A stretch of 64,000 nt of DNA from Candidatus Latescibacterota bacterium (lineage in GTDB: Bacteria > Latescibacterota > UBA2968 > SICM01). The stretch is taken from contig CBDCJO010000002.1 of the NCBI GenBank assembly GCA_965217865.1, positions 4,288,001 to 4,352,000 of the forward strand, given 5' to 3'. The position numbers were made by a program, and so were the translations under genes. Positions 4,371 to 46,078 of this stretch are shown piece by piece. Under the pieces are notes generated by a model. That model did no database searches and was not told where the DNA came from. It saw only the letters and a program-made list of their open reading frames with translations. The first letter of the stretch is position 1, and every line of letters begins with the position of its first letter.

Positions 4371-5561
4371 GTGAACAGCAGGGAATATGTGATGTCGTTG
4401 AATCTCGAGACGGCGACACACGATGCGATAGAGGCAATACTCGGAGCTCGCGAAAGATTCAGACAATGGATAGAAACGATCCGACCGGAGAAACCACCTT
4501 TGGGAAGGTTCCACTGGGCACTGGAACACACCCGGGATGCAAGCATCCCGAGCACGGGATATGCCCTTGCCGGATTAAGTATGATGGGGCTGTTCGACGA
4601 GATCATAACCGACCAGGATAGAAGCGAGGGGACTGAGTGGGTAATGAGCCGCTACGTGGGCAACGGACAGTTCCGCGATCCCGCGCTGCTTAACAGAGTC
4701 AGTGCGGACTGGCCGAAGGATAAGGAGTGGCCTTCCCCCCCGATGCTCGAATCCGCGAACGGGTACGCGTATGGGTCACTGACGAAATACGGCGCAAAAG
4801 ACATTCCGGTTCGTCAACCGGCGAAGGGTTTACTCGATACGGACGGCTGGCAGGGTATGCTCAAGTTCATTACAACCAGAGACATTGATGAGAGTCCCTG
4901 GGGTGAAGGAAGCCACGCCGGGAGGATGTGCCTCTATCTGGTACGGGAGTATAGAGATGGAAAGGCCCCGATTGAGGCGGTCGTTAAGGCTGTGGAGTAT
5001 CTGTTGGGAAAACAGGATCCGGAGACAGGCCTGTGGGGCAAACCCGGACTGCCCCTCAACCAGAGGCTTAACGGAGCCTACAAGCTGTTCGGCTTCTTGC
5101 GGTGCACACTGGATCTGCCGCTCCCTTATGCCGACAGGTTGCTGGACAGTGGATTCGAATATTTCTACCGGCCTGATCACGATGAGAAAATCGATTCGTG
5201 CAGCGAGTGGGACGCCCTTATGGTGATGAGGGAATTGCAGCCTCTGGTAGGCGATTACAGGGAAGAGGAACTCAAGAAACTTGCGGCATACCGTATTGCG
5301 AGAATCGTGGACCTCGTGCAACAGCCGGACGGGGGATTCAGCGGATCGCGGACCTGCTGTACCACGAGCTTTGTCGGCTTCGATATGGCGCCGCCCATTC
5401 TGCAGGGTGATGTGCACGCCGTGATTTTCTCGCAAGCGATCGGCGAATGCGTTGATATGCTTGGAATCCAGGAACGATCGAAAACACCCGGTATGGGACG
5501 GCAGCGAGCAGAAGAAGACGTGGAACTGAGAAAACGCGTACGGGATGCCGTATTCGGATAG
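4371..5561 (+). CDS. Hypothetical protein, prenyltransferase/squalene-cyclase-like alpha-barrel repeats
   Basis: QDPETGLWG and QQPDGGFS QW-like repeats. Confidence 0.55.
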   Translation: MNSREYVMSLNLETATHDAIEAILGARERFRQWIETIRPEKPPLGRFHWALEHTRDASIPSTGYALAGLSMMGLFDEIITDQDRSEGTEWVMSRYVGNGQFRDPALLNRVSADWPKDKEWPSPPMLESANGYAYGSLTKYGAKDIPVRQPAKGLLDTDGWQGMLKFITTRDIDESPWGEGSHAGRMCLYLVREYRDGKAPIEAVVKAVEYLLGKQDPETGLWGKPGLPLNQRLNGAYKLFGFLRCTLDLPLPYADRLLDSGFEYFYRPDHDEKIDSCSEWDALMVMRELQPLVGDYREEELKKLAAYRIARIVDLVQQPDGGFSGSRTCCTTSFVGFDMAPPILQGDVHAVIFSQAIGECVDMLGIQERSKTPGMGRQRAEEDVELRKRVRDAVFG

Positions 5562-5795
5562 TCTACTTATCTTACCCACTACCAGATAAGGCCGTTTATG
5601 GAATCGCCGAGGGGTTGTCAAATTAAATATTGTTTTCTTCTATAAGAAGACATTTATGGTGGGGTGCGGTTTCCGCTTTCCGGCGTAAATACATAAACAT
5701 TAGACATAAGCGCAGCTTAACCCCACACACAAATGGGGACGTCTCCTCCATAGGCCGCCATAGACACCGCACGGTGAATTGTTTATATTTGAACA

Positions 5796-6299
5796 GTGGG
5801 AGAAATTCTCTTGGATGCAGAGCCTAAACCGAAAGTCTATTTGGAAACGAGCGTGGTGGGATATTACGCGAGCCCACCGAGTCGCAATATTGTAACAGCC
5901 GCTCGTCAAGAACTCACTCGCGATTGGTGGGCAGAGAGCCTTCCACACTTTGACACATACATTTCTGCTTTGGTGTTACGTGAAGTCAGTGAAGGACACG
6001 AAAGTGCGGTGGAGGGACGTCGACAAGCAATTTCTGGAATCAAAGTATTGGAGATCAATGAAAACGCGGAAACTCTAGCCGAAACGCTCATGACTTCTGG
6101 CGCGATTCCGCAAGAGCATCCCGAAGATGCGCTGCATATTGCACTTGCAACCGTTCATGGAATGGATTTCCTTGTCACATGGAACTTCGCGCACATAAAT
6201 AATGCGGTCATGAAGCGGAGAATCGAGGACGTGTGTGAATCCAAAGATTATGGGTGTCCAGTTATCTGTTCTCCCGAGGAGCTTGGAGGCCAATCATGA
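5796..6299 (+). CDS. PIN-domain (VapC-like) toxin
   Basis: VYLETSVVGY, EDALHIALA, FLVTWNFAHI. Confidence 0.9.
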   Translation: MGEILLDAEPKPKVYLETSVVGYYASPPSRNIVTAARQELTRDWWAESLPHFDTYISALVLREVSEGHESAVEGRRQAISGIKVLEINENAETLAETLMTSGAIPQEHPEDALHIALATVHGMDFLVTWNFAHINNAVMKRRIEDVCESKDYGCPVICSPEELGGQS

Positions 6300-6463
6300 A
6301 GTTCGACCCAATCGTCGATGAGATTCGGCGAATCCGTAACACCCACGCGGCTCGCTTGAACTACAATCTGAAGGCCATTTGTGCAGATCTAAAGAAGATA
6401 GAGAAAGAGTACGGTCAACCCGTGGTGTCTCTTCCCCCCAAGCGGTTGGAGAAGAGAAGATAA
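6296..6463 (+). CDS. Small putative antitoxin partner of the PIN protein
   Basis: ATGA overlap with PIN stop; MKFDPIVDEIRRIR..., a type commonly found downstream of this PIN subfamily. Confidence 0.7.
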   Translation: MKFDPIVDEIRRIRNTHAARLNYNLKAICADLKKIEKEYGQPVVSLPPKRLEKRR

Positions 6464-6569
6464 TTACTTAATCGAGTTGACGCCCAACCGAATATATTCC
6501 TCTCTTTTCCATCCTGACGGCCTTGCCTTCTCTTATTTAGGCCGCATCCTATCCCAAGCTGTACCAAAC

Positions 6570-6710
6570 GCATAACACCCGCACCCCCGGCTCCGGCCCT
6601 TTCGGCAGAAACCCAACCAGCCTTCACGGTTACGGCGCTTCATGATTTTCTGAAACCCGTGATGCAAGCGACGCGCCCACGGCAGGTTCGGGGGTGCCAA
6701 AACGTTATTT
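6570..6710 (+). other. attC-like site (141 bp)
   Basis: GCATAAC...GTTATTT cores; inner arms GCACCCCCG/CGGGGGTGC; CAGGTTCG motif. Confidence 0.7.
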
Positions 6711-6792
6711 AAAACTGGCGCAAAGACAAACCCCAACACCCCACTCCGGCAAATCGCGTACAAGAAGCAACGACTATCTCATCTTGAGTTTT
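6701..6792 (+). repeat. About 92-bp direct repeat, copy 1 (copy 2 at 8239-8330)
   Basis: AACGTTATTYAAAACTGGCGCAAAGACAAACCCCAACACCCCACYCCGGCAAATCGCGYACAARAAGCAAC is shared by both copies. Confidence 0.9.
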
Positions 6793-6840
6793 CTACCGCA
6801 AACGAACTTACATCATATTTCACTAGGAGGCTATTGAGAC

Positions 6841-8154
6841 ATGAGCCCGACGGCCCAGGACCGGACAAGGGTTCTGGCGGCGCTAATGCGATCATCTCGT
6901 CCAAACACTTTCTCGAGAGTATGCTTCTTTCTAGGGGCCGGAGCACCTAGAGGCGCAGGCGTGCCGCTTGCCGATGAGCTTAAGGATACGGTTGCGAACT
7001 CCATTTTTGGAGCAGACGTGCCATCTGCAATAGCTGAAGGACGTCTTGAGGACGCGCTCGAACTTTTCCAGGCAATGGGAGGACGAGATGGCTATGAGCT
7101 TGTGGCAGCGGAGATCAGGCGATATTCAACTCAGCCAGAGGCCTACCCTCTCCTTGCTGATCTGATCGCTCGAGGATTTGTGGAGGCAATTCTGACGACG
7201 AACTTCGATCTCTTGCTCGACCTGCTGCCTGCGATTCGCGCTGTGGACTTCGCTCTGTTTGCGACAGATGAAGACTTCGACAGTCGCCAAGTGCCAACCA
7301 ACCAAACCTTAGTAGCCAAGCTACATGGATGCTCGTCTGATCCGGCTTCTATGCGTGGATCTTGGACGGACACGAAAGAACTGCCCACCGCTCGTAGCAC
7401 TGTCTTGTCGCACTATGTGTCAACCTACCCGATGGTCTTCGTCGGTTGGGCCGGCCTCGACGCAGATATTGTCCCTATACTCGAATCGATCTCAGCAAAA
7501 TCGGATCACCCAAAGATCTTCTGGGTTAACCCTTCGGACGGGGCCCCCCCTGCCGCAATTGTGAATCTCCTCGCAAAATTCGACTCGATAGAGAATTACA
7601 TCTCCCTGCCTGCAGACGAATTCTTCGCCCTCTTGCATGCCGAGCTGTTCCCTGAGGCCGCTGCGGGCAGCTCAGATGTGGACGTGGCACGCGCGATCCT
7701 AAAGAGGCTGTCCCGGTCCACTGCGAGGAGAGACTTGGAGACGGCAGCGAAGATACGGAAGGATCGAGAGGAGTTTCGACATCGTCTCGATGCTCTGATT
7801 AGGAAGTTCGTGGCGTCATTGAAGACAACCCTCGCGCCAGAATCTGATCTGGTGATCGCCGGTGGCAGGAAGCTTGAGGTCCGGACCGGTGGTCCGGTCT
7901 TGATTCTCCGCCACGAGGTGGAGTACACTGACACGGGCTCCGATCTAACAGTACGTGCTGGACTTGAGTTCTATGAACGGTCGAAGCCGGGAATCGGTGC
8001 TCCCCTTCCGCCTGCTATTGATCGGGGAACTCGATCGATCGTTGTAGAGTGGGGAAGTGAGGCAGGCCTCGTAAACCTTCGACTCTGGCTGGACAGCGAA
8101 GTAACGGCCCTCCTCACGGAGGTTCTTACAGAGATGGAAGGAAACACCAGCTAG
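6841..8154 (+). CDS. SIR2-family (SIR2_2-like) protein with uncharacterised C-terminal domain
   Basis: FFLGAGA, ILTTNFD, AKLHGC, VFVGWAGLD, IFWVNP motifs; RBS AGGAGG upstream. Confidence 0.9.
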   Translation: MSPTAQDRTRVLAALMRSSRPNTFSRVCFFLGAGAPRGAGVPLADELKDTVANSIFGADVPSAIAEGRLEDALELFQAMGGRDGYELVAAEIRRYSTQPEAYPLLADLIARGFVEAILTTNFDLLLDLLPAIRAVDFALFATDEDFDSRQVPTNQTLVAKLHGCSSDPASMRGSWTDTKELPTARSTVLSHYVSTYPMVFVGWAGLDADIVPILESISAKSDHPKIFWVNPSDGAPPAAIVNLLAKFDSIENYISLPADEFFALLHAELFPEAAAGSSDVDVARAILKRLSRSTARRDLETAAKIRKDREEFRHRLDALIRKFVASLKTTLAPESDLVIAGGRKLEVRTGGPVLILRHEVEYTDTGSDLTVRAGLEFYERSKPGIGAPLPPAIDRGTRSIVVEWGSEAGLVNLRLWLDSEVTALLTEVLTEMEGNTS

Positions 8155-8176
8155 TCGGAATACACCTTCTGTAGCT

Positions 8177-8248
8177 CTCTAACAACGGTATGAAACAGAC
8201 TCCCACTTTCGCTCCACTCCGCCAGGCTCGCATCCGGGAACGTTATTC
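8177..8248 (+). other. attC-like site (72 bp)
   Basis: CTCTAAC...GTTATTC cores; arms CGG(T)ATG/CATCCG with one extrahelical base; lies 22 bp after the SIR2 stop. Confidence 0.65.
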
Positions 8249-8330
8249 AAAACTGGCGCAAAGACAAACCCCAACACCCCACCCCGGCAAATCGCGCACA
8301 AAAAGCAACAACCACTCCATTTGAGTTTTT
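8239..8330 (+). repeat. About 92-bp direct repeat, copy 2
   Basis: Matches 6701-6792. Confidence 0.9.
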
Positions 8331-8409
8331 CCACAACGAATGGACCTTCATCTAGTCTAGTTGCCGATTTTTTGGGTATAACCAATAGTTGGGGAATTAC
8401 ATATTTAAC

Positions 8410-8438
8410 TTGACAAACGCAAGGCAATTGTTTATATT
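8410..8438 (+). promoter_or_regulatory. sigma70-like promoter of the IS1595 transposase
   Basis: TTGACA-17 bp-TATATT; the -35 lies inside the left TIR. Confidence 0.65.
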
Positions 8439-8487
8439 TAAAATTGTTTGTTAGAACAGAGAGTAAACAACAAAAAGGACAATTGCC

Positions 8488-9432
8488 ATGTCACAGAAAG
8501 CGCCTGGAAAGTCTCACCGCAAGGGAATTTCGATTCTCGAATTGGCCGACATGTTTCCAGATGAAGCGGCCGCGGTGATTTGGTTTGAAAAGCAGCTCTG
8601 GAATGGGGATCGTTGCTGTGGTCATTGTGGAAGCGTCAAGACGCGCGAGGTACCCAATACCAAGCCCATGCCTTACTGGTGCACGGATTGCCGGTCTTAC
8701 TTCAGCGTCAAGACTGGCACTGTCATAGAGAAATCTCGCCTGCCACTTCGCAAGTGGGTCTTTGCGATTTACATCTGTGTCACACATCTCAAAGGTGTTT
8801 CCAGTATGAAGCTCCATCGGGATTTGAAGGTGACGCAAAAGACCGCATGGTTCATGCTCCACCGCCTACGTGAAACATGGGGGACGGATATGGCGGTAAA
8901 GTTCGAGGGTCCCGTTGAGGTTGATGAGACCTATATCGGTGGCAGGGAAAAGAACAAGCATGCAAATAAGAAGTTGCACGCGGGGCGAGGCACAGTAGGC
9001 AAGGTTGCCGTGGCGGGTGCGAAGGATCGTAAGACGCGAAAAGTAAGAACTCAAGTAGTTGAACACACGGACGGCGCGACCCTTCAGGGTTTTGTCCACA
9101 ACAATGTGAAGGATGGCGCAACGGTCTATACGGATGATGCAACGGCCTATCAGAACATGTACGGCTTTGATCACAAATCCGTGAAGCACAGCGTTGGCGA
9201 GTTTGTAAGAAAAAAGGCTCACACGAACGGTATGGAAAGCTTTTGGGCATTGCTGAAGCGTGGCTATTATGGCACCTATCACAAAATGAGCCTCAAGCAT
9301 CTGCAGCGTTACGTCAATGAATTCGCTGGACGTTGCAGTATTCGGGACGTGGATACCGTGAAGCAGATGCAATCCGTTGTTGCGGGGATGATCGGAAAAC
9401 GGTTGATGTATAAGGAACTGATTCAAAGTTAG
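8488..9432 (+). CDS. IS1595-family transposase
   Basis: CGHC/CTDC Zn ribbon, VEVDETYIGG, VYTDD, HTNGMESFW, YHKMSLKHLQRYVNEF. Confidence 0.95.
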   Translation: MSQKAPGKSHRKGISILELADMFPDEAAAVIWFEKQLWNGDRCCGHCGSVKTREVPNTKPMPYWCTDCRSYFSVKTGTVIEKSRLPLRKWVFAIYICVTHLKGVSSMKLHRDLKVTQKTAWFMLHRLRETWGTDMAVKFEGPVEVDETYIGGREKNKHANKKLHAGRGTVGKVAVAGAKDRKTRKVRTQVVEHTDGATLQGFVHNNVKDGATVYTDDATAYQNMYGFDHKSVKHSVGEFVRKKAHTNGMESFWALLKRGYYGTYHKMSLKHLQRYVNEFAGRCSIRDVDTVKQMQSVVAGMIGKRLMYKELIQS

Positions 9433-9447
9433 AAGGGAGAGAAGATC

Positions 9448-9957
9448 ATGCCGTACTTGGCCGAAGCAGTCGCTAATAGTTTCCTGGATATCGCTAAGTC
9501 TTCAGGCGAAACGGTAGACGCGATGAAAATCCAGAAACTGGTGTACTTCAGTCACGGGTGGCACCTCGGATTCGATAAGGGGGCCTTGAGCGCCGAGAAC
9601 GCACAGGCTTGGAGATGGGGACCGGTTTTTCCAGATCTTTACCAAGTAGTGAAAGTCTGGGGGAGTAGGCCCATCATGGGGCCCTTAGAAACTATGGATG
9701 TCGGTGAGCACAGAAGGTTACAGTGGAACACGCCGCGCGTCCCTCCCGAGGATACTTTCGCGATGGAACTCATCGAACGAGCGTGGGAGGTCTATGGTCA
9801 CATGCCTGGGCTGTCGCTATCGCAACTCACACACGAACCTGGGGGGCCTTGGGATACAATAAGGAAAAAGAATCCCTATGGCTATAACTTGGTGATTCCG
9901 AATAACATCATCAAGAAACACTTTGCACAGAAGATCTCGGCAAATGCCGGAACTTAA
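9448..9957 (+). CDS. Panacea (SocA/DUF4065/GepA-like) antitoxin
   Basis: VANSFL, MKIQKLVYFSHG, AQAWRWGPVFPDLY, LSQLTHEPGGPW. Confidence 0.9.
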   Translation: MPYLAEAVANSFLDIAKSSGETVDAMKIQKLVYFSHGWHLGFDKGALSAENAQAWRWGPVFPDLYQVVKVWGSRPIMGPLETMDVGEHRRLQWNTPRVPPEDTFAMELIERAWEVYGHMPGLSLSQLTHEPGGPWDTIRKKNPYGYNLVIPNNIIKKHFAQKISANAGT

Positions 9958-10321
9958 AGACCTTCGCACCGTCCGGACTGATAAGCTTCCAGAACCTGAT
10001 CAGCAAGACGTCAGTCTGTTCGATGACGAGAAAAAAGAACTTGATAACCAACGGCTTCGACTTTATAACCAACGACTTGAAGCCGAAATCAACGATCTCA
10101 CTCAGGACCGCGATCAACGTAAAACGTACGCAAACCGCTTATATTGGCTCATTGTCGGTTGGCTCATTGTTGTTGGCTTAATCATGCTTCTGCACGGATT
10201 AAGTCCCATCTCATTCAAACTCTCCGTCACTGTGCTCACTACTCTAATCGGCTCAACCACAATTTCGGTTCTGGGGTTGTTCGTCATCGTCGCAAATTAT
10301 CTTTTTCCCAAGAGGCCTTAA
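9944..10321 (+). CDS. Putative membrane toxin partner of Panacea (coiled coil + 2 TM)
   Basis: Overlaps the antitoxin stop by 14 nt; charged helical N-half, then two hydrophobic segments (LYWLIVGWLIVVGLIMLL; VLTTLIGSTTISVLGLFVIVANYLF). Confidence 0.7.
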   Translation: MPELKDLRTVRTDKLPEPDQQDVSLFDDEKKELDNQRLRLYNQRLEAEINDLTQDRDQRKTYANRLYWLIVGWLIVVGLIMLLHGLSPISFKLSVTVLTTLIGSTTISVLGLFVIVANYLFPKRP

Positions 10322-10428
10322 AATCCCCCTAACTACTTTCACGCGATTGCAGGCACCGTAAAGGAGTTGCAGGTTACTCAACGGGGCGTGAAACTGGCGC
10401 CCCCCCTTGTATGTTTGAGGAGGCGTGT

Positions 10429-10581
10429 ATGCCACGTTACGAGTTTAAAGGCGCGACACCCGAAGCGCTAGCCCGAGCCTTACGCCGACGGCCGTCGGGC
10501 CAAGTGGACAGACAAGAGAAACATTCAGCAGACCATCAGAAAGAGCAGCAGAAAGGCACTCAACGAAACAATCCTAAATGA
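10429..10581 (+). CDS. Small 50-aa ORF near the IS1595 right end
   Basis: RBS GAGGAGG; MPRYEFKGATPEALARALRRRP...; below the ORF-track cutoff. Confidence 0.5.
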   Translation: MPRYEFKGATPEALARALRRRPSGQVDRQEKHSADHQKEQQKGTQRNNPK

Positions 10582-10651
10582 TTTCTCGACTTTTGTCAAG
10601 TTAAATATGTAATCCCCAATAGTTGGGCATCACTGAGAAAGGAAGGAAGTT

Positions 10652-13957: not shown

Positions 13958-14761
13958 ATGAGCAGAAAGTTGCCAACTTCCGAATATGACAACCACGGTG
14001 ACTTTTACTACGACTGCATAAAGAGGAGGCTCGCCGACGAGGACTCTTTCCTCAAATTGACGATGGATGTCGTATTGAGATTATTGGGCAACGTCGAAGG
14101 CTTGAAAATTTGTGATCTCGCTTGCGGAGAAGGGCATCTTTCTCGGAAGCTGGCAGGGTTGGGTGCACAGGTCATGGGAGTAGATCTGTCCGAGAACCTA
14201 CTCCTTCACGCTCAGGAGGACTCGTCCGCGTCCGAAATCAGATTCGTTCGAGACGATGCCCAAGAGTTGGCAAGTTTCTCAGATGATTCTTTCGATATAG
14301 TCGTCTGCAACATGTCTCTGATGGATATTGAAGATCTGAATGGAACCTTTCGTGCGGTCGCAAGAACACTGAAACCCTATGGCCGGTTCGTCTTTTCTGT
14401 ACTCCACCCCTGTTTCGCGTCCCCATTTACAGTTGAGGATGGCAGCCCCTTAGAAACGGACGAAAAGGGAGAGTTCGTCGCTTGGAGGACCTTCAATTAC
14501 ACTAACGAAGGGAAGTGGTATTCTAGTGGATCAGGACTGCGCGGAACGTTCGGCTCAATCCACCGCAAGATTTCAACATATGTCAATGCGCTCCCAGAAG
14601 CCAAACTCAACCTTCGTAGGGTTGAGGAACCAACTCTTCCCGGCCCAAAGTATGACACTGCCGCCAAGCAGCTCTCTAGCAAGATCCCAAGGACAATAAT
14701 AGTAGAGGCTCAAAAACCAGGGAGTGATCTCTGCTCAATCACAACGAACACACGCGTATAA
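13958..14761 (+). CDS. Class I SAM-dependent methyltransferase
   Basis: CDLACGEG, VLHPCF; RBS GGAGG before ATG 13958. Confidence 0.9.
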   Translation: MSRKLPTSEYDNHGDFYYDCIKRRLADEDSFLKLTMDVVLRLLGNVEGLKICDLACGEGHLSRKLAGLGAQVMGVDLSENLLLHAQEDSSASEIRFVRDDAQELASFSDDSFDIVVCNMSLMDIEDLNGTFRAVARTLKPYGRFVFSVLHPCFASPFTVEDGSPLETDEKGEFVAWRTFNYTNEGKWYSSGSGLRGTFGSIHRKISTYVNALPEAKLNLRRVEEPTLPGPKYDTAAKQLSSKIPRTIIVEAQKPGSDLCSITTNTRV

Positions 14762-14799
14762 CACGGCACGGTCAGGGTCGGGGCTGTAAGACGTTACAC
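14756..14799 (+). other. Short/degenerate attC-like site
   Basis: GCGTATAAC...GTTACACGC inverted cores, overlapping the upstream stop codon; only 44 bp. Confidence 0.5.
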
Positions 14800-23286: not shown

Positions 23287-23992
23287 TGCACAGAATGGGA
23301 TTTCTCAGTCACGACAAAGATTGATCGCCAAAATGATTGCTGACGCTAGGCTTAAAAATCCAGATGAGAAAATTCGACAAATTCTGCAGAATTATCGAAT
23401 TTTCAAGGAAATTTCTATAGGTCCAAAGGAAATCCAAGTTGCGAGATTCTTTATCGAAAAAACATGGGTCGGTCCACAGCATGGTAGTGACTGGCGATTC
23501 AGATTGATGGTCACGGACGCTGTCGTGATTGGAAAAGTGGATAAGATTATTGATCTGCCAACCTCCTGCGGCTATAACACCGCTATTCAAATTTCTGTAG
23601 AGAGATTTCTAAAAGGCCATTCTCCAGAAAAAACTATTACAGTTAAATTGATAAGTGGAAAGGTCGCCGACGGAATCAACTTTGTCCGCGTAACCTCTGA
23701 ACCCAAATTTCAAATAGGTGAGAGGATACTCATATTTCTAGGAAAGACCCCTTCTCGCCTTCATCGGGAACTATCAAGTCACCCCCGTCCTGACAACATT
23801 GAACTATGGTATAAAACCGAAACAGATAACTATTTTGAGCCTGGGTATGTCAAGTATACAATTGATAGTGAAGAGAAACTAGATTGGCCTTTTCTTCAAA
23901 GCGGAGGATATGATTGGTATGCTGGAAAAAAGGATTTATCTTTCGCCATAGAAGAAATTCAGAAAGCTATGGACGCAGAACTAACCTGGTAG
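23237..23992 (+). CDS. Hypothetical protein (AT-rich, probably secreted; 5' end disrupted by IS200 MITE)
   Basis: 251-aa ORF; its first 16 codons derive from the MITE. Confidence 0.6.
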   Translation: MGRGVVNAPPFGRGDLLAQNGISQSRQRLIAKMIADARLKNPDEKIRQILQNYRIFKEISIGPKEIQVARFFIEKTWVGPQHGSDWRFRLMVTDAVVIGKVDKIIDLPTSCGYNTAIQISVERFLKGHSPEKTITVKLISGKVADGINFVRVTSEPKFQIGERILIFLGKTPSRLHRELSSHPRPDNIELWYKTETDNYFEPGYVKYTIDSEEKLDWPFLQSGGYDWYAGKKDLSFAIEEIQKAMDAELTW

Positions 23993-24022
23993 CGCCGCGC
24001 CCACGGCAGGTTCGGGGGTGAC
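23991..24022 (+). other. attC remnant (3' arm only)
   Basis: AGCGCCGCGCCCACGGCAGGTTCGGGGGTG is nearly identical to 6667-6696 of the first attC; the GTT core is absent. Confidence 0.55.
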
Positions 24023-24055
24023 AAACCTAATGTCCACCGATATAGGAGATCCCCA

Positions 24056-25059: not shown

Positions 25060-26585
25060 CAGCCCGTTGAAGAACTACCTTTCAACGCACATAAACGGAA
25101 AAGACGCCTGGAGTGCGGGTCAGATAAATCAAGGTAAGGAGATTGAGCAGGAGACGCTGATAAGAGGTTAAAAAGGTGACCGAGGGCAGCAAACGTGATT
25201 GTAGGACGAGCAGTAGACGCTGCAAGGCCTTGGCCAGGTCCTGGAGGGCCTTCGGAGTACCTACGCCCATCACTTTGCGCATGAGCAGAGCCAGGTTGCA
25301 GCCCCCGATGTGGATCAGCAAACGCTTGAGGATATTGCCGCGGTCTCTCAAGTGCAACCTGCGCATGCCACCGGTATCATATGTGTGAGCGATGGTTCTT
25401 TCCACCCGTTCTGCACGACTTCGGCGCAAGGCCTTGCCGCGATCTCCCTTGATCCGGCGTCGATTCGCATATACCGCGGCCTGCTCATCTCGTCGGCCGT
25501 TCCACTTGCGGCGTCCCCGATCCGGTTCTGAAATGTAACTCCGGATGCCGCCTTGCTTCAGACTGGTCAATACATCGTTGCTATGATATCCTTTGTCCGC
25601 AACCACCTCCCGTATACGCTGTCTGTGCAAACGTTTGGCAGCTTTTTCGTCCTTCGCGACCTGCTTGAGATTGAGCGGCGCCTCGAGCAGCGTCCAGGGC
25701 AACGACTCGGTATCTCCTTCATCTGCTCCCGACAACGCCACTGCCACAATGGCATTGGTGTCCAGATCCACCGCGTGCTCCACCTTGTGCGCCATGTGCG
25801 TGCGACCGTCCTTCATCTTAGCGATCTTGGCATCCGGGTCGTGCGGGTGCTCCCAGTCCTGGTTCGATCCCTTCTTCGGTCGCTTCTTATCGATCTTGGA
25901 CAAGTCCTCGCGGGTAGGCGTTTCAATGCCCGAGGCCTTGGCCAGATTCTCAAGGAATGCCTGGTAGCCTTCACCCGTGTCACGGCGTACAATGCTGCGC
26001 ATCGCGGCGTTGGCCTCCAGTGTCGTAGCATCCACGCCCAACGTCTTCCCCTTCACCAGACCCGCTTTGCACAAGACCCTCAGGATCCACTTGAAAACCG
26101 CTTCGTGAACTTCCAAGGGAAGCCGATGCCGGATGCGAGACAGGCTGGAATGATCCGGGGTCTGTTCGTCAAGGGCATACCCCAAAAACCGGCGCAACGT
26201 CAGCGAGTCAGATACACGCCATTCGATCCCACGTTCCGAATCAAGTCCCTCGAAATACCCAATCAAAAGCATCCGAAAATAAACCCCGGGCGGAATGCCC
26301 TTGCGACCCATATGAGGAGCGTAATACCGCTGGCAAAGCCCCTCGACGAACTCGTCGAAGCCGTTCGCCCCCAATACCTGATTCAGCTTCTCGTAGAACG
26401 GATGACCCGGAGATTTCACCAAAGTGTTCGATGCGATGAACAGGTTTTCCTGTCTCTGTCGTCCTCGTTTTCCCATTGCCATTTGCTCGTCCTCCCTTCT
26501 CAGTTTGAACCTGATATATCATAGGACCAAACCACAAGGAAAGACAACAGTCATCTTGGCATAAACGCACTTTTTCAACAGGCTG
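25060..26585 (-). mobile_element. IS1182/IS5-like insertion sequence
   Basis: TIRs CAGCCCGTTGAAGAACT / ACTTTTTCAACAGGCTG; CTAG duplicated at 25056-25059 and 26586-26589. Confidence 0.88.
25082..26482 (-). CDS. DDE transposase (IS1182/IS5-like)
   Basis: GRKGIPPGVYFRMLL, PDHSSLSRIR, GVDATTLEANA, VVADKGY, ERTIAH. Confidence 0.9.
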   Translation of the reverse strand: MAMGKRGRQRQENLFIASNTLVKSPGHPFYEKLNQVLGANGFDEFVEGLCQRYYAPHMGRKGIPPGVYFRMLLIGYFEGLDSERGIEWRVSDSLTLRRFLGYALDEQTPDHSSLSRIRHRLPLEVHEAVFKWILRVLCKAGLVKGKTLGVDATTLEANAAMRSIVRRDTGEGYQAFLENLAKASGIETPTREDLSKIDKKRPKKGSNQDWEHPHDPDAKIAKMKDGRTHMAHKVEHAVDLDTNAIVAVALSGADEGDTESLPWTLLEAPLNLKQVAKDEKAAKRLHRQRIREVVADKGYHSNDVLTSLKQGGIRSYISEPDRGRRKWNGRRDEQAAVYANRRRIKGDRGKALRRSRAERVERTIAHTYDTGGMRRLHLRDRGNILKRLLIHIGGCNLALLMRKVMGVGTPKALQDLAKALQRLLLVLQSRLLPSVTFLTSYQRLLLNLLTLIYLTRTPGVFSVYVR

Positions 26586-27588: not shown

Positions 27589-27670
27589 CACTAACACGAC
27601 CGTGCGCGGCTCGGTGCATCTGCACCTTCGCCCAACAAGCCGGCAGTTCGCGCACCCGAAATCGTTAGTG
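27589..27670 (+). other. attC-like site
   Basis: GGCCACTAAC...GTTAGTGGCC; arms GTGCGCG/CGCGCAC. Confidence 0.85.
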
Positions 27671-28205: not shown

Positions 28206-28300
28206 CACTAACACCGTGCTCACGCTTCGGCGGCTTCGCCGCCTTGACCCTCCGGGCAACCTGGCTTGCGCCAGGTTCGTGAACACAGAAGACGTTATAC
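28206..28300 (+). other. attC-like site
   Basis: CACTAAC...GTTATAC; arms GTGCTCACG/CGTGAACAC; AACCTGGC...GCCAGGTT sub-hairpin. Confidence 0.85.
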
Positions 28301-43188: not shown

Positions 43189-46078
43189 ATCGCTCGTACT
43201 CGACGAACCGTTATCCTCAAATCAGACGGTCGGAGCCGGGTTCACGATCTCCGGCGAGGTTACGGATCCATCCGTCTCCAGGCTTCTCCTGAGCTTCGCA
43301 CGTACCGATGGCGCAGACACACTCAAGCTTGAGGCGGAAGTCGCCGGGGGTCGATTTTCCCGTCCGGTTGTGTTCGCCCCTTCGCAATCGGGGACCTATG
43401 TGCTGTCCCCATTCCTGTTTCGAGAGGGTCCGTTGTTCGATGGGACAAACGCCTTCGGTCCCATCGTCCTGGGACCGAACCCCACAGGTGAAGTGGTTCT
43501 ACCGGCAGATTTTTTCGCGGGCTTGAAATTCGACAATCCGCTCTCCGCCAGGCAGGTCTCGGGAGAAGGTTTTACGATATCGGGGGTGGCGGAGGATCCT
43601 TCGATTCAGGAGGTGCTTTTCAGGTTTGTCCGAGTCGGTTCTTCCGACACTCTCCGATTCACCGCCACGATCGAATCGGGGCGTTTCCGGAGGCCGATCA
43701 TATTTACCCCGACGCAGGCCGCGACCTATCAACTCGAGGTCTTCGGACTGAGGAGCGGAGCTTCGTTTGACATTATCGACGAGTTCTCCGAGTTCGTTGT
43801 GGAGAGGGGATTGACAGACGACATTATTCTTCCCCCCGATTTTTTCGCGAGTTTGAAACTCGACAACCCGCTCTCGGCCAGGCAGGTCTCGGGAGAAGGT
43901 TTTACGATATCGGGGGTGGCGGAGGATCCTTCGATTCAGGAGGTGCTGTTCAGGTTTGTCCGAGTCGGTCCAGCCGACACACTCAAATTCTTCGCCACGA
44001 TCGAATCGGGGCGTTTCCGGAGGCCGATCATATTTACCCCGACGCAGGCCGCGACCTACCAACTCGAAGTCTTCGGACTGAGGAGCGGACCGTTATTCGA
44101 TTTTATCGACGGGTTCCCCGAGTTCGTTGTGGAGAGGGGATTGACAGACGACCTTATCCTTCCCCCCGATTTTTTCAAGGGGATCACCTTCGATGCCCCA
44201 TTTCCGGCCACGATCACAGCGGGATTGGGTCTCAGGCTCTCGGGCAACGTATCAGACGGGGCGGCCACCGAGATGCTGATTCAGTTTGCCCCGGTGCAGG
44301 GATCGCCGATCCAGTTCGTGCTGGACATTGATAACGGGGGCTTCATTCAAGACATCGTTTTCGCCCCTGATCAGGCGGGAACTTATACAGCCAATTTTTT
44401 CCTAAGCTCAGGACAATCTTTCACCTTCGTCGATGGGTTTGAGCCCGTGACTATACAGGTCGTACCTGGTGTAAAAGTCTCAATTCCCGTCGGATTTTTC
44501 TCTGGCCTGACCCTGGATGCGCCTTTCCAGGCCGATCAGTTCGTGGGGAGGAGCGCTCCCTTTTCCGGATCGGTTGCGGACCCTGCCAACACACAACTGG
44601 CCGTCCAGTTCCAGTCCCTAGACGGGGGGGAGGACATTCCGACCGTCTTTTTCGATGTCACCAACAGCATCTTCAGCCAGGATCTTTCTTTCTCGCAGGC
44701 CGGCAAATTTCAAATGGTGGTGTTTGCGGGGGTGAAGGGCGAGCAGATCTCCTCCATCGGCAATTTCGACGGGATCCAGGTCCGCACGGGTCAACCCGAT
44801 CTCGCGCTCACGGCCATCAGGCTGGACTTCGGGGAGGTTCCGGCCGGGGGTTCTGCTGAAAGATCCCTCACGATTCACAATCGCGGAACCCAGACGCTGT
44901 CCGTCACCGATGTGGTGGCCTCCTCCTCCCTCCTGACCGTTTCCCCACGCACAGCATCCATCGCAGCGGGTGACAGCTCCGGATTCCTGGTGGTTTTCCA
45001 GCCGACCGAAGAAGGGGATCTCTCCGCTACCCTGACCGTGATGAGCAACGATCCGGACGAAGGGAGTCTGTCCGTGTCTGCCGTTGCAAGGGCCACAGCG
45101 CGGATCGCTTCCCCTCCAACTCTCGTTGTCTCCCCGGTTCAGCTCGTCTTCGGAGAAGTCGAGGTTGGAACCTCATCCGATCAGGTGGCGATCCTTCGTA
45201 ACACCGGTGACGATACGTTAATAGTAACCGGCATTCAGTTCAGCGGTCCCTTCGAAGCCTTCTTCCCCGCGATTTTTCCACTTTTCCAAATGGCTTCCGG
45301 TGAGAGTGTTTCTGTCCTGGTGACGTTCACGCCTACCGCCCCGGGGGAGGCAACCGGGGTTATGACAGTGTCGAACAACGATCCAGACCGGAGTGAACTC
45401 GGGGTATCGCTTAGCGGGACAGGTGTTGCGGTTTCTGAGCCTCCGGTTTCCCTGACCCCAAAGGACGGAGATGGGACTGCGAGCCTGGGCATCGAGGACC
45501 TTGAGACGAAGTCGCTGGGTGAAGTGAAACCCGGACAGGAGATCGACATTTCGATTGCGTTCAACCAGGAAGTGGAAGCGTCCACGGGGTTTGGTGTGGT
45601 TCTGACGTTTGATCCTGAAAAGCTTTCCGTGGATTCCGGTGTGGGAGATGGCGTTTTTGCCGCGGCTATCACACTTCCCCCTCAGGTCGAAGACAGCACC
45701 GTTGAGTTCGGCGGTTCATTTTTGGGCCAATCCACGACCGCGGCAGGGCCCGTGGCCGTGTTGACCTTCGTGGCGGTCGAGGGCTTTTCCGGGGAGACGG
45801 AGATCGAGTTAACGGAACTGTCGATCAAGTTCTCCGGGGGGAGCAGCGACTTTACACCGGGTGCGTCAGTGGTGCTCAGCAGCGAGGTTTTGGGCGGAGG
45901 TGAACCGTCGGCGGACTTTACCGGAGATGGAAAGGTAGACTTCGATGACTTCTTCGAGTTTGCCGCTGCGTTCGGACAATCGGCGACCGGGGCGTTCTCC
46001 AGGTTCGACCTGGACGGGGCGGGAGAGACGATCGATTTCAACGACTTCTTTGTGTTTGCAGCGGCGTTTGGAAAATGA
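43115..46078 (+). CDS. Surface protein: repeated PxDFF beta domains, two ASH/Ig-like domains, cohesin-like domain, dockerin/EF-hand C-terminus
   Basis: LDFGEV...SNDPDE twice; LTFDPEKL; DFTGDGKVDFDDFFEFAAAFG / DLDG...IDFNDFFVFAAAFGK. Confidence 0.8.
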   Translation: MSTHSWSPSPRPFGRSSWPLVDFFESLVLDEPLSSNQTVGAGFTISGEVTDPSVSRLLLSFARTDGADTLKLEAEVAGGRFSRPVVFAPSQSGTYVLSPFLFREGPLFDGTNAFGPIVLGPNPTGEVVLPADFFAGLKFDNPLSARQVSGEGFTISGVAEDPSIQEVLFRFVRVGSSDTLRFTATIESGRFRRPIIFTPTQAATYQLEVFGLRSGASFDIIDEFSEFVVERGLTDDIILPPDFFASLKLDNPLSARQVSGEGFTISGVAEDPSIQEVLFRFVRVGPADTLKFFATIESGRFRRPIIFTPTQAATYQLEVFGLRSGPLFDFIDGFPEFVVERGLTDDLILPPDFFKGITFDAPFPATITAGLGLRLSGNVSDGAATEMLIQFAPVQGSPIQFVLDIDNGGFIQDIVFAPDQAGTYTANFFLSSGQSFTFVDGFEPVTIQVVPGVKVSIPVGFFSGLTLDAPFQADQFVGRSAPFSGSVADPANTQLAVQFQSLDGGEDIPTVFFDVTNSIFSQDLSFSQAGKFQMVVFAGVKGEQISSIGNFDGIQVRTGQPDLALTAIRLDFGEVPAGGSAERSLTIHNRGTQTLSVTDVVASSSLLTVSPRTASIAAGDSSGFLVVFQPTEEGDLSATLTVMSNDPDEGSLSVSAVARATARIASPPTLVVSPVQLVFGEVEVGTSSDQVAILRNTGDDTLIVTGIQFSGPFEAFFPAIFPLFQMASGESVSVLVTFTPTAPGEATGVMTVSNNDPDRSELGVSLSGTGVAVSEPPVSLTPKDGDGTASLGIEDLETKSLGEVKPGQEIDISIAFNQEVEASTGFGVVLTFDPEKLSVDSGVGDGVFAAAITLPPQVEDSTVEFGGSFLGQSTTAAGPVAVLTFVAVEGFSGETEIELTELSIKFSGGSSDFTPGASVVLSSEVLGGGEPSADFTGDGKVDFDDFFEFAAAFGQSATGAFSRFDLDGAGETIDFNDFFVFAAAFGK
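43508..44175 (+). repeat. 330-bp intragenic tandem duplication (110 aa)
   Basis: GGGAGAAGGT... at 43561 and 43891; the two units are nearly identical. Confidence 0.9.

Follow-up and report, generated by a model that had tools for sequence, protein, structure and literature searches.

P0001, a protein of 437 amino acids encoded on the forward strand at 6841..8154 of the window (the whole 64,000-nucleotide stretch of DNA that was analysed, C2:4288001-4352000), is likely a variant of the single-protein SIR2 defences in which the SIR2 domain is followed by a predicted regulatory tail of a new type. Its gene, located at C2:4294841 in a genome of 6.43 Mb that is 96% complete and 9.3% contaminated, is likely the cargo of a decayed integron cassette. 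To our knowledge, the on/off control of SIR2 NADases is known for only a few partners, these being SLOG, HAM1, HerA, Argonaute, STAND and the DSR2 solenoid. The SIR2 theme is a familiar one in defence, and the tail is the new element.

The SIR2 gene and its core domain

The gene has an AGGAGG ribosome-binding site at 6825-6830, and the region 6715-8278 was reproduced with 0 differences by single contigs from each of the runs X1, X2 and X4, one of which is possibly the origin of the assembly itself. The gene sequence is therefore not an assembly error, and the open reading frame is real and intact. Residues 1-271 (6841..7653, forward strand) make up a SIR2_2 domain, which matched the Pfam model PF13289 at 42.8 bits against a curated cut-off of 24.5 and carries the motifs GAGA at residue 32, TTNFD at residue 119 and KLHG at residue 160. 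The first-pass annotation, a set of notes made from the DNA letters, had described an intact core of this kind, and that description was borne out. An Rfam scan gave a single match, which was taken as chance.

TTN.D and HG motifs were present in all eight of the near-complete proteins of the family, and a CxxC motif was present in none of them, P0001 included. Zinc-binding CxxC motifs are a mark of the classical sirtuin deacylases (CobB type). The NCBIfam deacylase models gave no match to P0001, and P0007 scored 17.8 against a cut-off of 243. A classical sirtuin deacylase was rejected on the basis of the missing CxxC motifs and of this score, which is far under the cut-off. In an alignment, the Asn and His motifs of P0001 line up with those of the SPARSA Sir2 proteins, and by motif N121 and H162 appear to be the counterparts of N133 and H171 of DSR2. 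Both of those residues are required for the NADase activity and the defence provided by DSR2, according to the portions of the two reports available to us (PMC10981675; bioRxiv 10.1101/2021.12.14.472415).

An AlphaFold2 model of P0001 was built from seven sequences (pLDDT 81.4, pTM 0.59). The top VIA match of this model was ThsA (7uxt), with a Z of 21.0 and an rmsd of 3.1 over 248 aligned residues, ending at residue 270; ranks 2-6 were occupied by KomC (19.6 and 19.2), PsSIR2 (18.5) and Avs5 (18.1 and 16.6). Deacylases in the same list reached a Z of 16.1 at most, and the ADP-ribosylating SirTM a Z of 12.7. Foldseek agreed with VIA, its list being headed by KomC, SPARSA, ThsA and DSR2. As modelled, the SIR2 part belongs to the defence type and is predicted to cut NAD, with a fold nearest to those of the defence NADases. 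In a published phylogeny, in the part of it available, every documented antiphage SIR2 protein falls into a single clade, whose gene neighbourhoods are 12-fold enriched in defence genes (bioRxiv 10.1101/2024.09.18.613514).

Probable cassette setting

GTT cores at 6704 and 8242 enclose the SIR2 gene and no other; beyond the stop codon lies an inverse core, TAAC, at 8180, and from GTT core to GTT core the putative cassette is 1,538 bp in length (6705..8242, forward strand). A degenerate attC-like site is located on either side, both on the forward strand. The upstream site (6570..6710) would belong to the preceding unit, while the downstream site (8177..8248, with the ends CTCTAAC...GTTATTC) lies 22 nt past the stop codon. 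The earlier claim of attC-like sites flanking the gene held in part. Both sites are correctly placed and show the ends TAAC...GTT, and blastn detected three full-length relatives of the upstream site in the genome (E 1e-23 to 4e-10), but neither folding nor site grammar set the two apart from shuffled sequence. The upstream site pairs end to end with a folding z of -0.60 against shuffles, and the window copy folds at -26.6 kcal/mol compared with -41 to -45 kcal/mol for its relatives; the downstream site is single-copy and folds poorly (z +1.33 against shuffles). With a hand-written attC grammar the two flanking sites scored 7 and 9, and at a score of at least 9 the window contained 7 sites and eight shuffles contained 3 to 8. 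The attC-like hairpins are not above chance here.

The leader repeat is better evidence for a cassette than the hairpins. The 5' leader after the first GTT core (6705..6814, forward strand) is 81% identical to 8239-8352 over 114 nt, including 34 nt that are identical, and the second copy (8243..8391, forward strand) forms the start of the next unit, which is broken by an insertion sequence. A profile made from six leader copies detected three more in the genome at E below 0.01. One leader copy comes after a broken integron-integrase-like gene, and two of the three new copies sit before dfrA1-like genes, at C2:344954-345415 (L119) and C2:1986828-1987301 (L120), which scored 243.5 and 253.5 bits, respectively, with the NCBIfam model trim_DfrA1_like (cut-off 250). 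At the one of these two loci that was inspected, the core reads GTTAGGC and the stop codon is overlapped by a TAAC. Genes of the dfrA1 type are typical cassette genes. The two dfrA1-like genes, which share their type of leader with the SIR2 gene, sit in what is apparently an environmental genome.

No linked intact integron integrase was found, and the best candidate in the genome is the integrase-like gene at C2:1657172-1658351 (L115, L116), which lies at a distance of 2.6 Mb and is split into two pieces that score 117.7 and 105.4 bits against a cut-off of 265. After this gene, in the same direction, there are a GTT core, a leader and a gene; the stretch before that core recurs without an integrase at C2:1789440-1789600. 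Additional TAAC...GTT elements were located in the window at 14756-14799, 27589-27670 and 28206-28300, and the region from approximately 5.8 to 30 kb suggests a decayed cassette array without an integrase. An attC-like remnant is also present at 23987-24031, and many short genes on the same strand occur from approximately 5.8 to 30 kb, among them genes for a glyoxalase, a GNAT protein, a methyltransferase, a kinase and a nucleotidyltransferase.

Run X5 contains a 515-nt contig (depth 10.2) that passes directly from 6710 to 8249, leaving out 1,538 nt, while pieces of the SIR2 gene in this run have a depth of 2-5.4 and both ends of the gene are uncovered. No such joint was listed for the other seven of the eight runs. 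This contig hints at a mixed population in which an empty site is present, or at an assembler artefact, as the joint falls inside the 34-nt repeat.

Neighbouring genes

An IS1595-family element of 2,226 bp (8392..10617, forward strand), with inverted ends and an 8-bp target duplication, lies outside the SIR2 unit and has landed in the leader of the unit that follows the SIR2 cassette. It encodes a transposase (8488..9432, forward strand; PF12762, E 1.1e-40) and carries two passengers on the same strand, a Panacea antitoxin (9448-9957; PF13274, E 2.9e-13) and a 125-amino acid Panacea partner with two hydrophobic segments (9944-10321), which is found in the copies of the element. There are three identical copies in all, each with an 8-bp target duplication, the others being at C1:384767-386992 and C2:898860-901085. 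It had been proposed from the letters that 5.8-10.6 kb is a small defence cluster. That proposal had missed the transposase and has to be abandoned, the Panacea pair being cargo of the IS1595 element. The element has the appearance of a recently active transporter IS that spreads a toxin-antitoxin pair, the 125-amino acid partner being a two-helix membrane protein.

Upstream of the SIR2 gene, a PIN-domain gene and an overlapping 55-amino acid gene (5796..6463, forward strand) were previously read as a toxin-antitoxin pair. The pair is a possible one: the PIN gene fell just under the cut-off for PF01850 (23.5 compared with 23.6 bits), and its 55-amino acid neighbour had no significant Pfam family match. 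The pair has paralogues elsewhere in the genome, and may represent the preceding cassette since an attC-like site comes approximately 100 nt after it.

A Pfam scan of the 13 open reading frames between 3.6 and 16.2 kb revealed no known SIR2 partner, in agreement with the first-pass annotation; the neighbours include glyoxalase, GNAT, kinase and methyltransferase genes, and deaminase or HAM1-like genes, as in Kongming, were likewise absent from these 13. No Macro partner is adjacent to the gene. There is no Argonaute among the neighbours, and the genome, at 96% completeness, gave no match to Piwi. TIR matches were found at C2:362003, 383167, 605448 and 5203017, the nearest of them 0.91 Mb from the SIR2 gene, and the nearest HerA (DUF87) match is 0.74 Mb away. 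P0001 itself has no STAND NTPase domain, SIR2_2 being its only Pfam match and 437 amino acids leaving no room for one. This neighbourhood is not a defence island. In G037, a genome of the same family, an orthologue of the 396-amino acid upstream gene is followed by unrelated genes.

The C-terminal tail

After the SIR2 part, the model of P0001 predicts a long basic helix at residues 278-331 (7672..7833, forward strand) and then a beta-meander and helix domain at residues 338-434 (7852..8142, forward strand), in which five strands (338-403) are followed by a closing helix (407-434). The stretch 273-292, at the start of the long helix, is a low-confidence part of the model. The strands are predicted to form an antiparallel meander without helices in between. 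This order matches the helix and alpha/beta domain reported in the first-pass annotation. The tail of the homologue P0002, when folded alone, gave the same order with an extra strand-helix segment (pLDDT 85.1, pTM 0.78). The tail of P0001 is 29 residues shorter than that of most homologues, with the gap in the strand-helix segment, and P0011, which is 81% identical to P0001 over 180 residues, has the same 29-residue gap, indicating that this is a natural short variant of the tail. An assembly error was rejected as the cause of the gap on the basis of P0011 and of the contigs with 0 differences.

Sequence searches agreed with the earlier view that this domain cannot be assigned. Pfam gave three single-member matches for six tail sequences (E 0.017 or worse), PADLOC six single-member matches for 13 tail sequences (E 0.011-0.04), PHROGs 12 single-member matches for 13 tail sequences (E 0.019 or worse) and the PDB sequence search two matches (E 0.43 and 1.5), all of which were regarded as noise; NCBIfam gave no significant match. 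None of the six tail sequences matched SLOG, Macro or another ligand-binding family of Pfam at E up to 1. APAZ was checked separately: the PADLOC pAgo/Aga profiles match the SIR2 part, one of them extending weakly to residue 333, and a single tail homologue has a weak pAgo match (E 0.011). Foldseek, a check that the first-pass annotation had proposed, gave no match to the tail at E 0.001 or better in the PDB or BFVD. Levivirus coat proteins recurred in the Foldseek rows, and capsid mimicry was rejected because the best of these rows (E 0.0024, TM-score approximately 0.26) reflects a generic meander. The ESM Atlas returned only unnamed clusters for the tail, with scores of 0.78-0.90.

A wide VIA comparison of the P0002 tail recovered Med17C (Z 8.3, rmsd 3.7, 103 aligned), the CadC periplasmic domain (Z 7.3), CyaY/frataxin (Z 7.2, rmsd 3.0, 94 aligned), FP domains, capping protein and T3SS chaperones (Z 5.0-5.8), and the P0001 model also matches Med17C (Z 8.2); all of the tail matches are at a Z of 8.3 or less, and a Z under 8 may reflect a common arrangement. 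Chains of SLOG, Macro and APAZ were absent from the best 50 VIA rows, which leaves room for families outside those rows. The tail resembles TY-Chap2 of the TY-chaperones (T3SS chaperone / YbjN), with its five-strand meander and flanking helices, and the TY-chaperones are described, in the part of the source available, as predicted peptide-binding modules of conflict systems (PMC9503650). However, the tail has no sequence match to TY-chaperones or frataxin, and its VIA Z of 5.0-7.2 at 6-17% identity is no better than that for the unrelated Med17C (8.3) and CadC (7.3). We treat the TY-chaperone likeness as a lead from the model and make no assignment from it.

Gly, Pro and hydrophobic residues make up most of the tail positions that 75% or more of the members share, among them G350, G351, P352, L354, P388, P391, W416 and L417; the tail therefore shows no sign of a catalytic site. 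Across the family it is more variable than the SIR2 part.

Family and distribution

Of 7,997 proteins scored in a search of 5.8 billion, nine had an E of 0.001 or better, namely the query P0001, two distant SIR2 proteins and six close homologues with 38-53% identity. A tail profile run against 1.84 billion representatives gave 10 matches, nine of them at 1e-10 or better, while two further searches contributed P0018 alone and a metagenome scan contributed L023. The family totals 16 sequences or fragments when P0017 (1,882 amino acids, Ig-like repeats, E 5e-5) is left out; this protein was rejected as a member. The tail is present in 14 of the 16 and is a conserved feature of a family and no one-off. 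The earlier description of a stand-alone, defence-type SIR2 protein in a cassette-like setting is supported.

Ten of the tail-bearing sequences extend back into SIR2, and the remaining four (P0010, P0012, P0014 and P0015) have their first residue in or at the tail. These four may represent fragments, or a free-standing form in the case of P0015. P0015 (181 amino acids) is a divergent tail homologue, and the Atlas contains 30 unnamed clusters of similar size with scores up to 0.90. In none of the 14 was the tail joined to a non-SIR2 effector or another fused domain, and the domain swapping typical of sensors was thus not seen. P0006 and L023, both on contigs of approximately 1 kb, end within about 35 residues after SIR2. 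A quick tree of 109 SIR2 domains, made with IQ-TREE, placed the nine family rows that it included on one side of a branch with an SH-aLRT of 100 and a stem of 1.35, and gave no clear sister group. Judged from these sequences, the family is a rare, tight and well-separated clade.

The tail was found in one of 168 genomes of the phylum (52 of which have at least 90% completeness and at most 5% contamination), this being the genome that contains the window, as expected for mobile accessory genes. The scans yielded 22 loci from genomes, at least 76 from metagenomes (45 of 64 parts covered) and two from viral sequences, and among the matches listed the only close relative was L023. A phage search was without a match, and a plasmid search gave one distant SIR2. 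The genomic context known for the family comes from the window locus and one 1.1-kb contig. Among the other loci, L025, L027, L028, L030, L033 and L058 form a clade of SIR2-only proteins of approximately 285-310 amino acids with a second gene directly after, while L026, L041 and L043, close to that clade, are single long proteins; these could be fused and split versions of one pair.

Comparison with known systems

P0001 is similar to DSR1 and DSR2 in being one protein with an N-terminal SIR2 domain, including the Asn and His motifs, and no named domain in the C-terminal region. DSR2 chains matched the family profile at E 0.0055 and the P0001 model at a Foldseek E of approximately 1e-9, in the SIR2 part only. 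However, DSR2 has approximately 1,005 amino acids, and P0001 is less than half that length, in line with the earlier remark that it is far shorter than DSR1/2. DSR2 combines a middle domain with a C-terminal alpha-solenoid in the portion of its description available (PMC11850899), whereas P0001 has a single helix and a beta-meander. In the PADLOC check that had been suggested, no DSR1 or DSR2 profile was among the nine families matching P0001 at E up to 0.1. By analogy, P0001 would work like DSR1 and DSR2 without being a member of either.

ThsA (SIR2-SLOG) was the top structural match, and its SIR2-like size of 470-480 amino acids is near that of the homologues with 470-495 amino acids, but the match stops at residue 270 and the tail of P0001 has no Pfam SLOG or Macro match. 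The adjacent TIR gene of Thoeris (thsB) is absent here, with none within 0.9 Mb. KomC, the SPARSA Sir2-APAZ protein, SIR2-HerA (Nezha) and Avs5 share the defence-type SIR2 fold with P0001. Where each of these four relies on a STAND module or a partner, the P0001 gene has neither next to it. The PADLOC profiles PDC-S65 and PDC-S25 match P0001 at E 1.3e-10 and 2.2e-5, over residues 101-295 or less and against profiles 503-592 long, with the tail outside the match; no paper describing PDC-S65 was found in the literature. No description of the SIR2 and tail architecture was found in the abstracts and main-text passages of the available open-licence PMC and bioRxiv literature, PMC13434031 and bioRxiv 10.1101/2025.01.08.631966 included, and a word search showed that 'SIR2' is absent from the main text of three integron-cassette screen preprints. 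New SIR2 domain combinations are regularly reported (bioRxiv 10.1101/2025.01.08.631966).

Proposed mechanism and alternatives

A role in defence is quite probable for P0001, and defence by this one gene is somewhat favoured. The catalytic motifs, the defence-type fold, the conserved tail and the isolation from partners favour a one-gene NAD-depleting effector. Autonomy is also favoured by the preference of integron cassettes for small, self-contained systems, 783 of 789 of which are contained in one cassette according to the available part of a recent preprint (bioRxiv 10.1101/2024.07.02.601686). That the tail is the direct trigger of a predicted one-protein anti-phage NADase of the DSR kind is our tentative reading, which is slightly more doubtful than not and is made by analogy with DSR2, whose C-terminal part is the binding site for a phage protein and which has to form tetramers (PMC10981675, portion available). 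The P0001 enzyme would be off in uninfected cells. A phage protein would then bind the tail, a sandwich of helix, meander and helix like those of peptide-binding chaperones, and the long helix would pass this binding on to the SIR2 domains. These would assemble as an active oligomer that depletes NAD+, aborting the infection. Several observations count against this account: the absence of effector swapping, the two tail-less members, the generic fold of the tail, the 29 residues that P0001 lacks (a gap shared by P0011), the lack of a defence island, the status of the Panacea pair as IS cargo, the flanking attC-like sites, which fold at chance, and the broken integrase-like gene. With a genomic context that covers this locus and one 1.1-kb contig, autonomy is a prediction for the rest of the family. 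The phage-sensor role that the first-pass annotation gave to the tail is likewise a possible one: the tail occurred with SIR2 only, two family members end before it, and its fold is a scaffold common in protein interaction.

We consider it unlikely that P0001 provides no working phage defence, being instead an NAD-using enzyme with a different role (ADP-ribosyl transfer, stress response, or an anti-plasmid or addiction function) or the product of a stranded cassette that is silent or inactive. The neighbouring cassette-like genes do encode detoxification-type enzymes, the integrase-like gene is in pieces and the attC-like sites show decay, one X5 contig suggests unit loss, and the stretch from 6204 up to the SIR2 gene gave no match to a sigma-70-like promoter (5500-8500 has 3 such sites, where 2.0 are expected). 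However, there is no damage to the reading frame, the ribosome-binding site or either catalytic motif, the fold ranks with the defence NADases over the deacylases and far over SirTM, and the locus lacks an adjacent Macro partner.

Within a one-gene NAD-depleting defence, the tail could also be a mere dimerisation scaffold or brake, with the trigger being indirect (loss of a host factor, proteolysis or a metabolite change) or acting at the SIR2 domain or the long helix. We regard this as rather improbable. It is consistent with the fold neighbours of the tail, which are scaffolds and dimeric chaperones (Med17C, capping protein, the FP domain and T3SS chaperones), with the conserved Gly, Pro and hydrophobic core residues and few polar pocket residues, and with a strand-helix segment that can be missing, as in P0001 and P0011. 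Against this, the tail varies more than the SIR2 part, as would fit a surface under phage selection, and the C-terminal part of DSR2 binds the phage activator in the available account (PMC10981675).

The nearest structural matches of P0001 are effectors of multi-gene systems, ThsA needing ThsB and KomC needing KomA/B. An orphan effector that needs a signal or partner from another gene, encoded elsewhere or lost here, is nevertheless a poor prospect, even though the best PADLOC models include Argonaute-associated SIR2 proteins and the genome holds unlinked TIR and HerA genes, given that the two cores enclose no gene besides the SIR2 gene, which has a ribosome-binding site of its own, that the PADLOC matches are essentially limited to the SIR2 part, that Pfam assigns no SLOG, Macro or other ligand-binding family to the tail at E up to 1, and that whole systems are nearly always found in cassettes, at least in the portion of the survey available (bioRxiv 10.1101/2024.07.02.601686).

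Returning to P0001 as a one-gene NADase triggered through its tail, it is doubtful that the tail represents a new class of phage-recognition module, in which a chaperone-like peptide-binding fold is placed on a SIR2 NADase less than half the size of DSR2 and is spread by cassettes. If true, a single protein of 437 amino acids with a small and different regulatory domain would be a compact and easily tested addition, a chaperone-like fold would have been shown in phage recognition, and SIR2 effectors would join the integron-borne defences. The ecological weight would be small, the family being very rare, and the value would be mechanistic.

Other loci in the window and genome

A second SIR2_2 gene, encoding 1,307 amino acids without another Pfam domain, is present at C2:391337-395260 (L118:5338-9261), near a GmrSD gene and approximately 8 kb from a ThsB-like TIR match. 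Here, a DSR-sized protein appears to sit in a genuine defence island. Elsewhere in the window, 43484-44113 contains two tandem 300-nt copies that are 89% identical and 330 nt apart, and 25082-26482, on the reverse strand, contains a transposase-like gene of 466 amino acids. The same transposase-like sequence occurs on the other strand at C2:343378-344349 and C2:4220983-4221954, beside cassette-like sites.
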